Assembly: GCA_951406725.2 (NCBI GenBank)
Contig: OX597825.1
Span: 56,792,001 to 56,856,000, forward strand
Length of the DNA: 64,000 nucleotides
From: Octopus vulgaris
Lineage: Eukaryota
Direction: 5' to 3'
In this document: positions 3,958 through 55,642 of the stretch, piece after piece
How positions within the stretch are numbered: position 1 is the first letter of the stretch
Layout: every line of letters starts with the position of its first letter
Notes under the pieces: generated by a model
Seen by the model: the letters and a program-made list of their open reading frames with translations, nothing else
Databases searched by the model: none
Told to the model about the DNA's origin: nothing
Made by a program: the position numbers and the translations under genes

Positions 3958-4759
3958 TTAATTTGTTCGTACAAGCAAACGTGTATTTCATAATCGTAAT
4001 AATAATCAACATCGTTTTAACATCCACTTTTCTATACTTACAGGATTCGAACAAAGTTTATTGATGCAGACTTTCTGTTATTAACCCCCATTTGTTTTCA
4101 AACAAGGTAATATTTCTACATGGTCAGATATATTTTCGCAGAATATAGAAAATGAACGGCAGGAACAGTACTTTTGCTGATTTGCATCAAACTTGGTTAA
4201 GCTATTTGCAATTCGGTCTTGCAAGTCGTTCTTGTCGGGTTGTCAAGGACAGGTTTGCTGTGTTCGTACCTGACAACGCGAAAAATACAGAAAGGCATGG
4301 GTGTTTTATTTTGTTTTGTTTTTTTTTTTGTTTTTTTGCTTTTTGGTTTTTTTACAAATGTTTTGGAGAAGAATTTTCTTCCTAGACTATTTCTGCAGTG
4401 AAAGGACTTCTCGCGTTCAAGTGTACGCGAACGATTCAGATATTTCTTTATACCAGCATATTCTGTTCAATGCTGCTTACTGCAGCTTTATTTTATTGTC
4501 GCTTGATCAAGCTTTATGCATCTCATTAGACATACGAATCGCTTTTCTGGAGTTGTGAAGGTCATGTTTGGTGTTCGGAGCTGACGGCATAAAAGAACAC
4601 AAGAACACATGCATTCTGCGATCCATTGGCAACATTCTCAGCCTAATATGTTTCTCGAGACAATATCAGCAGCGATATACCTACTTAGGTCTGAGTGTAC
4701 TCAAACATGTAAAGTATGACTTCATACGAATGTGTTCGTGTGGATGTGTGCGTGTGTTT

Positions 4760-15789: not shown

Positions 15790-18000
15790 TCGCAAATTCC
15801 CAGCGTTAACCACTCAGTCGTCTAGCTAACAATGATTCTATTGTTTTTAAAATAGCAAATAAGGGAGGTGTTATTGGGCAGATAAGGGAGCTGAGTATAT
15901 TTCGGCATGTGAAAAGTTTTAAGTGACAAAACTTCATGTGAAGAATTACCTGTCGATCCAAGCCACAATTATTGAGAGGAACTTGACAAAATAATTTTAG
16001 AAATGGATGAAAACAATTTCATAAATGAAACTTAATCTAGGATATTGCGGTTAGAACAAAGAACACCTGCATTTCGTGGTCTCCCAAAAATACACAAAAA
16101 GCTACAAAAGTTTCCTCCAATGCGCCCAATTTTCAGCGGATAAGAATGTTGCGACGCCAAAATTTCGGAATGCTAAATGGCGTTCTACTCTCTGTAGCAA
16201 TATATTCGAGATAATTTTGATTTTGTGTCAAACTTAAGAATTTTTCTAAGCATAAAAGCAGTGTCGAAGACTACTTTTTGTGACCCACGGGTGTTAATCA
16301 TGGATGTTTCTTACTCCAGTATTGACTATGATGAGTGGGGTGATGAAAGTATGTATGAATACCTTTGAAAAACGGTCTAACAAAAGTATTCCATCCAACT
16401 TTCTCTGTAAATTATTTGTATCTTTTCGGAGAGGCCTTTCACATAGGGTAGACAGACTGTGGACAGTTTATTGGTTTCATCCTCTCTTTTCTTCATAACT
16501 GGAGTGGATAGTACCCATCATCATACAGTGTAAAGAGAAGGATTTCTCAGTGCCTAAAACATCGAGTAAAGAATATAAGTAGCGATCTTGATACCCACCA
16601 CGAAGAAATGATCAAGCTACGAACAAACTATTAAGCAACAACTACCCCCAAAAACATACTATCCACGCCAATTATGAAGAAAAGAGAGGATGAAACCTAT
16701 AAACTGACCACAGTCTGTCTATCCTATGTGAAAGGCCTCTCCGAAAAGGCATCAGGATAGTAGTCAAGAGCAATACAACACTTCGCAAATATCTCCTTCG
16801 AGTAAAACCACTAATTGAAGAGATTATGACCAAAGACTGCGTGTACTCCATCCCATGCCGCCCCCTCAAAATAAGGGTAGATGAACATCGCAAAATAAGG
16901 GTAGATGAACATCGAGGAGATATTGATAAATCGGGTATAGCTGATCGTGAATGGAAAAATGGAGACCACCTCCCACTGTGGGATGAAGTTAAAATAACAG
17001 ACAGAGAATACCTCTGGAAAATACGAAGACTAAAAGGAGCAGCACATATGCTTGGACACAACAACCTCCTAAGCAGGCCGGGTGCAGATATGAGTAGCAT
17101 ATGGGAACCGGTATTAAGAAGGATAGGAAAATATTAGATTTATAAGCCCTAAAATTTATGCCATAATTGCCCTCGGGCATATGGCGTAGTGGTTAAGAGC
17201 GCGGGCTACTAAGCCCAAAATTCAGGCAGTGACCTGAATAATAATAATTATTATTATTATTATAACAATAACAATAACAACATCGAAAAATACCTTAGAA
17301 TGAGAACCCAGGTTCGAAATTTCCCCAAGACACTTGATGAGGACAAATATCCGTCAAATGTAAAAAATGTACATAATTCCTCATTTCTTAAATTTAGAAC
17401 TGAATTCTCATTTGGTGTATGCGACGAACTGCACCAAACACAACTTGATTTATGTTAGTTGCGCAGCAGAACAATTAAATAAAAGGTTCAGTGAGTATAA
17501 GTATGACATCAAGCAGTAGTTCGAGGAACTTGCGGAACATTTTACATCAAACAGTTGTAATTTTGAGGAATGCCTGAAAGTGCACATTCTCAGAAAATAT
17601 TCTGACTCTACTGAACTTTCAGTCTTCAAAACACGTAAGGATAAATATATTATGAATAGCTAAAGTCATGTCCTGGAAGAATGAATAAAATAACAACTGA
17701 ATTTCACCACATTTACACGAAATGGTTTGGCTAAATGTTGTCTTTCCTGTTTTTTTTTCTCTTTATTTTCTTCTTCTTCATTGTTACCAGTTGTGCAAAA
17801 GCGAAAATTAATTACGTCATCTTGTCTAAAAAGAAACGCAGAATATTCCCGTTCATATTTTAAGTTTCGGTATTTCTACGTTCTTTGCATTTCACATTTT
17901 GAAGAAGACAGATAGTCTGTCGAAATATTATTCAATTCGTCCAATTCAATAAACAAAGTCTCTCTCTATTTATTACAAATCGCATCTCGCTTTTCTTATG
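15790..18000 (+). mobile_element. Old Penelope-like element remnant split by a younger PLE
   Basis: IVFKIANKGGVI (resembles KPADKG) near 15840; GIY-YIG-like LVYATNCTKHNLIYV...RFSEYK...LAEHF resumes at about 17403. Confidence 0.55.
16420..17402 (+). mobile_element. 5'-truncated Penelope-like element with GIY-YIG endonuclease and an inverted 5' segment
   Basis: ORF 16826-17137 CVYSIPC..RPLKIRVDEHR..KSGIAD..WDEVKITDRE..WKIRRLK; 16421-16512 is an inverted copy of 16658-16748. Confidence 0.8.
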
Positions 18001-26201: not shown

Positions 26202-26392
26202 CTGTGAAATGGTATATACCATTTTATTATTAACTGGGTAGCAGAGAAGTTTTGCCAAACATTCCAAAAATAAGAACCGTATCCAGCTAGGCAGCCGTTT
26301 ACTTCTTTCGCCGCTGTAGAATATATTCATGACAATCACAGACATTGAACAGCAGAGACCGACAAATACCATGTTGGCAATGAAGAAGAAAC
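26202..26392 (-). CDS. Internal exon of a Cys-loop ligand-gated ion channel, nicotinic acetylcholine receptor-like subunit (TM3 and start of the intracellular loop)
   Basis: Acceptor cctctccctcttccag|GT (phase 1), donor CAG|gtact; 191 nt; (G)FFFIANMVFVGLCCSMSVIVMNIFYSGERSKRLPSWIRFLFLECLAKLL matches nAChR TM3 plus the MX helix; the phase-1 intron sits where alpha7-type genes have one, after VPLI. Confidence 0.88.
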
Positions 26393-26702
26393 CTGGAAGA
26401 GGGAGAGGAATATCGAAGGAAAATTAGGTGAGAAACTGTAAACGCCTGTGTAAGTGTAGGTGTGTATATATATGTGTCTGGATGTATATATTTATGTGTG
26501 TGTATGTGTGTGACTGATGCGTGTGTGTGTGAGTACGTGTTTTTATATAGTCAGATTCTTTTTGACGATTTTACTACACATATACACACGAATATATGTG
26601 TGTGAATATATATATGCGTTTGTGTGTGTGAATAGCTATATATACATAATATATATATATGTATATATATATATATAATATATAATATATATATATGTGT
26701 AT

Positions 26703-26743
<41 letters not shown>

Positions 26744-27060
26744 CATGTGTTTCAATATGCACATAGATAAACAAACAAATATATATGATCTATATACACG
26801 TATATATTTTGTCTCACTCCCTCACATCTCTCTTCTTGTGATTCCCTGTCACTTTGCGTGTATATATATATACATGTGTACATGATAAAGGTAGATACTC
26901 AAGATGCAAATAATTAAGCAAAATCCAAATATGAATGAGTTCGCGTGATGGAAACAGTACACAACAATGACGTTGTTAGCAAACATATAAACTTCCTAGA
27001 ACATGCACAAAGACATAGGACGTAGATTGAGAAACAATATCGAAGCCATATATATGAGTG

Positions 27061-27131
<71 letters not shown>

Positions 27132-27133
<2 letters not shown>

Positions 27134-28027
27134 ACAATAAAGGGTGAAATTAATTAATTTGGAATAATTATCAATTACACCAAGTAGATTTCGGCATGTA
27201 AAAGCCTCATTCGAGGAAAATTTAAGTAATACTAAGCAATTAAGGGTTTAGCAACGAATTGCCTCACCAACACACCGAATTTAGAAATAGCAGTCAAAGA
27301 GATATAGCTATTCTTTCTACTAAAAGGGAGATCTCAGTAAAAACACAGCACTTGAAAGGCAAACACAGACAGGTAAGAAAGAATGAAATGACGGCAATCT
27401 ATCATCAATTCGTTGCTAAACCCTTAATTGCTTAGTATTACTTAAATTTTCCTCGAATGAGGCTTTTACATGCCGAAATCTACTTGGTGTAATTGATAAT
27501 TATTCCAAATTAATTAATTTCACCCTTTATTGTTACTGATAACCATATTTTATCCCAGTAAATGACCACAGCATCTTGTCTTGGCTACACGCGGGTGGAA
27601 GGGGGCTGGTGACACAAACTTTCATTCACACTTTGAATTTCGTGGTACTGGTCATGCTTTGGCTCGCTCTGACACTGAGTTGAGATAATGCCTTCTAGTA
27701 TCTCAAAATTTAATATACAATTATTCATAATTGTAGTATCCTACGCCGATGAGAAAAGAAGTTTGGGTAAGGTAGAATTTTCTAATTCTTATGCTTTCCT
27801 AAAACTTGATTTCGAAACGTACGTCCGTAGGTAACTTAAAATTGTATGATAGATTGCCGTCATTTCATTCTTTCTTACCTGTCTGTGTTTGCCTTTCAAG
27901 TGCTGTGTTTTTACTGAGATCTCCATTTTAGTAGAAGGAATAGCTATATCTCTTTGACTGCTATTTCTAAATTCGGTGTGTTGGTGAGGCAATTCGTTGC
28001 TAAACCCTTAATTGCTTAGTATTACTT
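27132..28027 (+). mobile_element. Non-autonomous HHR-bearing element: 584-nt unit plus a 274-nt inverted arm, in (TA)n
   Basis: Direct repeat 27406-27443 = 27990-28027; 27132-27405 is the reverse complement of 27846-28027 joined to 27444-27535. Confidence 0.85.
27740..27831 (+). ncRNA. Type I hammerhead ribozyme with extended stem II
   Basis: cctacg CCGAUGA g..(about 60-nt hairpin)..c GAAAC gtac GUC cgtagg; perfect stem I, palindromic stem III, GUC site at 27825. Confidence 0.8.
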
Positions 28028-28045
28028 ATATATGTATATATATAT

Positions 28046-28354
28046 AACCGTAACCGTGACTGACCAGGCTATCGGATGTTGCTACACATCGCTGATCACA
28101 ATGCGCTTCGCATTGTTTTAGCCTTCAAATGACGCCAAACCGCTGGCTAAGCGAGCAGGCCAACGGAAGAAAGAGTGAGAGAAAGTTGTGGGGAAAGGGT
28201 ACAGCAGGGATCGCCACCACCACCCTTGCAAGAGCCTCGTGGAGCTTTAGGTGTTTTTGCTCAATAAACACTCACAACGCCCGGTCTGAGAATCGAAACC
28301 GCGATCCTACAACCGCGAGTCCGCTGCCCTAACCATTGAGCGATTGCGCCTCCA
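28046..28354 (-). mobile_element. tRNA-derived SINE, family C
   Basis: Minus strand ggaggcgcaatcgctcaatggttagggcagcggactcgcgg..ggtttcgattc (A/B boxes); related copy at 51695-52003. Confidence 0.8.
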
Positions 28355-28356
28355 CA

Positions 28357-28443
<87 letters not shown>

Positions 28444-55338: not shown

Positions 55339-55642
55339 CATCTGTATGTATGTATATACACACACACTGTGAAACTGCCAACATTATTTAATCGATCGTA
55401 CGACCTTGTTGCACACAGGGTGACCTTCATTCAGCTTCTCGTCCACATTCACATTAAATTGATGAACACGTGATTCAATTGATTGAAAAACTGAACATTC
55501 ATCATCTCCACCGAGGGAGATCCCTCCATATATGTATACATGTATGTATGTATGTATACATGTATGTATGTATGTATACATGTATGTATGTATGTATGTA
55601 TACATGTATGTATGTATGTATGTATGTATGTATGTATGTATG

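Follow-up and report, generated by a model that had tools for sequence, protein, structure and literature searches.

A solo, non-coding repeat with a predicted hammerhead motif and Penelope-like insertion anatomy in Octopus vulgaris

The window analysed here, a stretch of 64,000 nucleotides of Octopus vulgaris DNA, holds an element of 896 bases in which a forward copy of 622 nt (1.07 units) and an inverted arm of 274 nt are arranged head-to-head (Table 1). Positions within the repeat unit are written as u, the window position minus 27405. The forward copy reads u1-584 and then u1-38 again, a direct repeat at a spacing of 584 nt. The arm aligns without gaps with the reverse complement of u441-584 followed by u1-130 and is identical to it at 272 of 274 positions, the mismatches lying at 27925 and 27937. 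It starts 20 nt past C17 of the predicted hammerhead (27825). Both 3' ends of the element face outward, each adjoins a TA run, and in the unit they lie 92 nt apart (u38 vs u130). The forward copy spans 1.07 units and the arm ends 20 nt before reaching the cut site, so the locus carries one ribozyme; the GC content of the unit is 36%. The layout agrees with a sequence-only reading of the same DNA, which had described a 584-nt unit with a 38-nt redundancy, a nearly identical inverted arm passing from just after the GUC site through the unit's end into about 130 nt of its start, and TA runs at both ends. That reading had also taken 27406 as the start of the unit, which is corrected here, since the position is merely the 5' truncation point of this copy.

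Table 1. Features of the element and of its surroundings (window positions; TSD, target-site duplication)
Feature	Position	Strand	Basis and remarks
Transmembrane exon of a nicotinic acetylcholine receptor alpha-10-like gene (host context, outside the element)	26205..26405	-	Protein comparison
Left (TA)n target run	27066..27131		Last 13 nt (27119-27131) are the left TSD copy; G landmark at 27125
Inverted arm, 5'-truncated, 274 nt	27132..27405	-	Sequence self-comparison; 3' end outward, into the TA run
Forward copy (partial tandem): non-coding 584-nt unit plus 38-nt redundancy	27406..28027	+	Self-comparison
Head-to-head inversion junction	27406..27410		5-nt microhomology CAATT, one-base offset
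Type I hammerhead motif (one)	27740..27831	+	Predicted; cut 3' of C27825 (C17)
Terminal redundancy, 38 nt, second copy of 27406-27443; right 3' end	27990..28027	+	Self-comparison
Right (TA)n run	28028..28047		28028-28040 (to 28042) is the right TSD copy; G at 28034
Previous exon of the nicotinic receptor gene	55396..55491	-	Found with one of two proteins

The exon nearest to the element is 96% identical to a nicotinic receptor alpha-10-like protein of Octopus vulgaris and 93% identical to a second Octopus protein. Judged by these protein matches, the element likely lies in an intron of about 29 kb of an Octopus nicotinic receptor gene, some 727 nt from that exon and with its ribozyme antisense to the gene. 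In the receptor pre-mRNA, the two arms could form a 274-bp hairpin about 0.7 kb from the splice acceptor, a possible substrate for A-to-I editing or silencing. Inspection by eye picked out a strong 5' splice-donor-like word on the antisense strand of the unit (27874-27882, minus strand; 27369-27377, plus strand), which in the forward copy is the sense strand of the host gene; on the sense strand, the ribozyme is likewise flanked by words resembling donor, branch and acceptor sites (27768-27900). Directly to the right of the element and outside the unit, a TA-bounded, SINE-like repeat with a tRNA-like head was seen by eye (28048-28356, minus strand), where ARAGORN calls no tRNA; there are no tRNA genes in the window.

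The predicted hammerhead has six of six Watson-Crick pairs in stem I (27740-45/27826-31) and a stem II of 61 nt (27753-27813) that consists of 4 bp, a 2x2 purine internal loop and then a long hairpin. Stem III is formed by 2 bp and a tetraloop within an 8-nt palindrome (27817-27824), for which an intermolecular duplex of -9.8 kcal/mol is predicted. Core position 4 is C (27747), that is, U4C. All four of these traits, a perfect stem I, a palindromic stem III, a U4C core and a stem II of about 60 nt, had been listed in the earlier reading and are upheld. A type I descriptor written around the generally known hammerhead core letters matched once in the window on both strands, at this motif, and matched 3 of 2000 base shuffles of the element. 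Rfam gave no match at gathering level in the window; at E<=10 it gave 21 matches in 27000-28400, all on TA runs and none a hammerhead. Copies of the core elsewhere were considered and set aside as chance: the exact 18-nt core pattern occurs at 4 and 1 loci in metagenome and viral contigs, respectively, with matches of only 18-19 nt and no 5' core.

When the fold of lowest energy is computed, the C4 core is taken up in an extended, inactive helix with the strand of stem III, and this predicted helix may further slow cleavage of this copy. U4C is reported to reduce activity in vitro yet to support viroid infectivity (PMC3088659). The unit folds far more stably than its shuffles when linear (z -6.0, 0 of 100 shuffles as good) and when circular (z -5.4 and -4.8), while the opposite strand gave z -2.5; among 10 control windows, three, of which two contain TA runs, reached z -3.7 or lower. 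The unit RNA is thus predicted to be highly self-paired, and its likeness to retrozymes holds in silico.

The unit has no protein-coding capacity. Read as a circle, its longest stop-free frames are 51 aa (plus strand) and 72 aa (minus strand), in agreement with the earlier statement that no credible ORF is present. A comparison of the element with 17 Penelope-type proteins gave nothing below E 0.15, and the reverse transcriptase (RT) and GIY-YIG ORF of an autonomous Penelope-like element (PLE) is absent from it. A relic PLE N-terminus was considered for the frame 27408-27680 with stops read through, and rejected: the frame found 4 matches among 1.84 billion proteins, all of them repeat-rich, unrelated proteins with weak per-repeat scores (at most 23.5 bits; two compared pairwise). 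No Pol III A/B boxes and no TATA were found on the ribozyme strand.

The stretch is contained in 20 of 24 listed sequencing runs (10 studies, 4 organism labels), none on record as RNA. Assembled contigs of four runs, X2, X3, X9 and X17, were mapped on 27406-28075, where 2263, 1412, 136 and 29 contigs fitted, respectively. The family details given below come from 24 of 217 loose ends, 40 of 79 variant rows and 32 of 3893 pieces, and the copy ends and junctions among them rest on single short contigs. Summed depth is about 30,000 to 1,100,000 over the unit in two DNA-like runs and about 100 at the far flank, and the family is large, at roughly thousands of copies, with the caveat that depth is not copy number. 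It is also present in X9 and X17, runs guessed to be RNA, which is no proof of expression. Among the variant rows listed, T>C changes occur at 18 places in X9 and 9 in X2; these could be editing, a reading that would need matched DNA. Along the unit, depth over about u395-u130 exceeds that over much of u131-u395, a step that may reflect arms but is confounded by contig branching; like the T>C counts, it carries no weight in the reading given here.

Other copies differ from this one within the ribozyme. Core position 4 is U in 66% (X2), 93% (X3), 50% (X9) and 0% (X17, one contig) of the depth, and U4C is a subfamily trait, mostly a minority allele and not the family norm. At the end of stem I, 27740 C>T and 27831 G>A reach 78% and 71% in X3 and 3% and 43% in X2, where 27831 G>A mostly occurs without 27740 C>T and the terminal pair is broken. 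In stem II, 27755 A>G and 27811 T>C reach 31% and 37% in X9, 10% and 17% in X3, and 2% and 34% in X2. These changes are unphased and agree with stem pairing in part. At 27925, the family base differs from that of this copy in essentially all the depth; the base of this copy accounts for about 140 of 613,013 in X2, a ratio near 4,400.

Among the ends listed, other copies stop in TA runs at 27541 (u136, two contigs of X17) and 28022 (u33, one contig of X9), and a further copy may end at 27434 (u29, X3). The offset between the two 3' ends of this element therefore looks like a longer tail, as other copies, seen in few contigs, end near u29-33 and u136. Among the pieces listed, one X17 contig continues past the redundancy (28028), and another X17 contig carries a second head-to-head junction elsewhere, 27577/27656. 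Because that junction is far from the cut site, the start of the arm 20 nt after the GUC is not a fixed feature. None of the 32 of 3893 pieces listed bridges the cut site with 31 nt on each side, and the 27405/27406 junction of this locus is absent from the joints listed. One X2 contig joins 28013 to 27596, passing the redundancy and then skipping about 140 nt, which hints at internally deleted, shorter units.

The TSD, the microhomology at the junction and the intron setting are additions to the first reading. The TSD-like duplication lies within the TA run and measures 13 nt, or 15 nt if the first TA of the arm is counted; it sits in low-complexity DNA, includes the only G near either boundary, and has a landmark-bearing equivalent in 837 of 100,000 trials with unrelated TA-run break points. 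For the 5-nt microhomology, 1584 of 341,056 random start pairs are equal or better (0.46%), and of the AATTG words that follow the cut site the junction uses the first (u435). Both 3' ends fall at UUA in the RNA. The pattern TATT-N1-2-TTA occurs at only two places in the unit, which are these two 3' ends; it was recognised post hoc and is absent at three other copy ends. The arms also allow an approximate date: with a rate of 0.0036 substitutions per site and million years (PMC13282606), 2 differences per 274 bp correspond to about 1 million years, with a very wide error and a bias if conversion between the arms has occurred.

The forward copy exceeds one unit and crosses the predicted cut site, and for this reason its template was a multimer or a circle, or else a template jump was needed; barring a jump, an RNA of more than one unit, concatemeric or circular, is required. 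The arm shows u584, u1 and the sequence up to u130 as continuous in the template, so the 38 nt are neither a target duplication nor a local slip. The earlier proposal of an origin from a circular or concatemeric self-cleaving RNA thus stands as far as the more-than-unit template goes. Its circular form gains nothing from the arm, which never crosses the cleavage site and is equally well fitted by a linear multimer. We think that the template was probably a linear multimer, given that the arm ends near the cut site, the U4C core is weakened and a PLE uses uncleaved RNA in vitro; a circle is plausible at a lower probability. Circular PLE templates have been proposed before, in work that also noted opposite-strand hammerhead pairs (PMC4209133). 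Because this copy has a single ribozyme, its own transcript could not yield a unit-length circle by double cleavage. One linear RNA of about 790 nt, with its 5' end at a cut ribozyme and one uncut ribozyme inside, would explain both cDNAs: the cDNA primed at u130 would run to the RNA 5' end and then be trimmed to the nearest microhomology, while the cDNA primed at u38 of the next unit would read through the slow U4C ribozyme. Alternatively, a circle copied 1.07 times together with a second RNA would account for both.

Taken together, we consider it quite likely that the element is a young insertion belonging to a non-coding family of high copy number whose units bear a predicted type I hammerhead, and that it was mobilised in trans by a PLE RT and GIY-YIG endonuclease, with both target strands primed on RNA of more than one unit. 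A tandem source copy would be transcribed into a multimer, which may self-cleave and circularise. The enzyme would then cut the (TA)n run with a stagger of 13-15 nt, as the TSD suggests, and each DNA 3' end would prime internally, at u38/39 and u130, as indicated by the two outward 3' ends at UUA. By the geometry of the element, one cDNA would measure 622 nt, passing through the ribozyme and beyond one unit, and the other 274 nt. Their ends would finally be joined through the 5-nt microhomology, giving the head-to-head inversion. We infer the PLE enzyme, the two-strand priming and the microhomology joining from this anatomy.

The inversion might instead have been made by self-priming or fold-back in an element of the same kind, as in the head-to-head model for Penelope with an antisense template. 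Self-priming has been proposed from palindromes at inverted PLE junctions (PMC3846280), and the 5-nt microhomology could serve as the fold-back site. A cDNA folding back on the forward copy would nevertheless hit the flank after u38, whereas the arm continues to u130, 92 nt past anything templated by the forward copy's 3' end; simple fold-back therefore fails and an extra template switch would be needed. The outer end of the arm is also near the TA ends of other copies and is bounded by the TSD, and we regard fold-back as unlikely. Twin priming on the same multimeric RNA by a LINE of the RTE, Dong-R4, CR1 or L1-Tx1 type is a still weaker candidate. Twin priming, known from work on L1, yields inversions with microhomology and TSDs, which counts for this alternative, as does the fact that these four groups are the most numerous recently active retroelements of O. 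vulgaris (PMC13282606). Against it, the unit lacks a poly(A) or simple-repeat 3' tail, both ends are internal, and type I hammerheads go with PLEs, while LINEs carry HDV-like or twister ribozymes (PMC7761336).

It is very unlikely that the unit is merely the truncated pseudo-LTR (pLTR) region of a PLE that codes for protein, without an independent existence, an outcome that the earlier reading had named as one that would overturn it. Most PLE copies are 5'-truncated, and truncated PLEs contain opposite-strand hammerhead pairs 100-700 bp apart (PMC4209133), as this alternative would have it. Here, the sequence closes on itself with a period of 584 nt in both arms, which leaves no template room for an RT ORF, and the longest read-through frame matched only the four repeat-rich proteins described above. 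The helices are moreover canonical (I of 6 bp, II of 4 bp) with no extra base between A9 and G10.1, unlike the minimal hammerheads of PLEs. The unit may nonetheless have descended from a pLTR by deletion. An event at the DNA level, be it a MITE-like transposon with inverted ends, a local inverted duplication or an assembly error, would suit the long inverted repeat, the TA target and the near-identity of the arms. Its termini, on the other hand, are not inverted copies of each other, being offset by 92 nt, and the TSD is 13-15 nt rather than TA. The arms also differ at two sites, and the rare base of the forward copy at 27925 recurs in X2, possibly from the window's own source; we hold a DNA-level origin to be extremely improbable. 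The preferred reading remains an insertion mobilised by a PLE enzyme.

Penelope-like elements are present in the host, with 31 recently active families in O. vulgaris (PMC13282606), and the Octopus Hydra and Naiad families prefer (TA)n (PMC8557442 supplement). The window itself contains, at 16407-17137, a decayed relic of a Penelope/Poseidon-type RT thumb and GIY-YIG domain, with 41-56% identity to Penelope-type proteins over its main stretches. This relic has its own head-to-head inverted arm (16422-16513 vs 16657-16748, 95%), whose outer end is inside the ORF and not at a pLTR end. Older, frameshifted PLE-like RT and endonuclease scraps flank it at 15840-16400 and 17400-17700 (by eye), and they are possibly a second PLE into which the relic inserted. 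Compared as DNA with the rest of the window, the unit gave no match below E 0.01; a match of 21 nt to an RT-like scrap near 15900, which runs antisense to the strand of the ribozyme, was taken as chance at E 0.05. The ribozyme of Hydra-1_Obim differs by eye from that of the unit, and a search of one published PLE supplement did not find the 12-nt core motif, although a line break there could conceal a match. An autonomous partner was not found in the window DNA, the 17 Penelope-type proteins, the Hydra-1_Obim ribozyme and that supplement.

The case for PLEs as mobilisers of animal retrozymes has been built on shared ribozymes, on co-occurrence and on homology to pLTRs in Xenopus (PMC7229834; Li et al. 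preprint). The mechanism is called unresolved in the literature, where the origin of the tandem and inverted structures of PLEs is also stated to be open. A retrozyme-type unit inside a full PLE integration signature is anatomical evidence for PLEs mobilising retrozymes, and with thousands of young copies both questions could be tested by counting ends in a public octopus assembly. A more far-reaching possibility, which we hold only tentatively and think somewhat unlikely, is a cephalopod family of circular-RNA retrozymes whose thousands of young copies record the whole Penelope reaction: two preferred RNA priming sites about 95 nt apart on both strands, arms stopping at the ribozyme-cut 5' end, and joining by microhomology. 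If true, the insertions of the family would be direct footprints of PLE enzymes mobilising animal retrozymes in trans and of hammerhead cleavage shaping PLE templates in vivo. In an animal with much A-to-I editing, every copy would also bring a long hairpin into introns. The literature searched, which did not extend to most subscription journals, the repeat databases (Repbase/Dfam) and several supplements, contained no account of a retrozyme in a cephalopod. Every component is already known, and the element is an octopus variant of a known element kind. The earlier retrozyme-like reading keeps its in silico likeness, and it had left unrecognised the Penelope-like insertion signature of the layout, which names a likely mobiliser and thereby lowers the novelty.

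Non-LTR retrozymes of animals are ORF-less tandem repeats with canonical type I hammerheads, producing self-paired circles of 170-400 nt, with PLEs as the proposed mobiliser (PMC7229834). A 2026 preprint (Li, Clavereau and Pollet, bioRxiv 10.64898/2026.07.22.740005) extends the units to 51-972 bp, describes dispersed monomers and homology to a Xenopus pLTR, and reports cleavage of 1 of 9 dimers in vitro. Like the metazoan retrozymes of these two sources (Cervera and de la Pena 2020, PMC7229834; Li et al. 2026), the octopus unit has no ORF and a canonical type I hammerhead geometry, and like the invertebrate ones a helix III of 2 bp plus a tetraloop. It further shares with them a GC content below 50%, a TSD longer than 4 bp, a self-paired unit, a high copy number, solo copies dispersed in introns and a PLE as proposed mobiliser. 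It differs in its size, as 584 nt exceeds the circles and the 150-450 bp given in 2020 and falls within the range of Li et al., as well as in its 61-nt stem II and in having one ribozyme and no tandem array at the locus. The inverted arm is a feature of this element that the available text of the retrozyme sources does not describe, and the main text of PMC7229834 does not mention cephalopods. Li et al. define activity by two or more tandem ribozyme-bearing units; the locus carries one such unit and no PLE ORF, and for these reasons we class it as a solo insertion from a non-autonomous, PLE-like family of retrozyme type, neither an active retrozyme nor an autonomous PLE.

As described for PLEs, an insertion is a partial tandem that often carries a 5'-truncated, inverted copy at its 5' end and has a tail of 30-40 bp on one side (PMC8557442), and rotifer insertions show head-to-head arms, TSDs of 8-10 bp and trans-mobilised passengers in the form of pLTR sequences (PMC3846280). 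A purified PLE protein of the anole cuts both strands of AT-rich DNA and extends them, beginning at two sites inside the RNA; it does not depend on cleavage by the ribozyme, and a dimeric form is predicted for it (PMC11167929). The octopus element resembles such endonuclease-bearing PLEs (Penelope/Poseidon, Neptune, Hydra, Naiad; PMC3846280, PMC8557442, PMC11167929) in its partial tandem, its inverted, 5'-truncated head-to-head copy, its two different 3' ends, TSD and (TA)n target, its hammerhead upstream of the 3' end and, as a proposed passenger, in trans-mobilisation. It departs from them in lacking an RT or GIY-YIG ORF, in its canonical rather than minimal hammerhead, in 3' ends 92 nt apart compared with a 30-40-nt tail, and in showing no homology to the Octopus PLE sequences compared. 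Chlamys-type PLE derivatives such as MRC1 are similar in being short and non-coding, with pLTRs and head-to-tail insertions through a PLE enzyme (PMC8557442); unlike the present element, they live in a green algal host and share 3' sequence with a known partner, and most Chlamys elements are without hammerheads. Judged from its sequence, the octopus element appears to join a retrozyme-type unit to a PLE-type insertion and would work like a PLE-mobilised non-LTR retrozyme.
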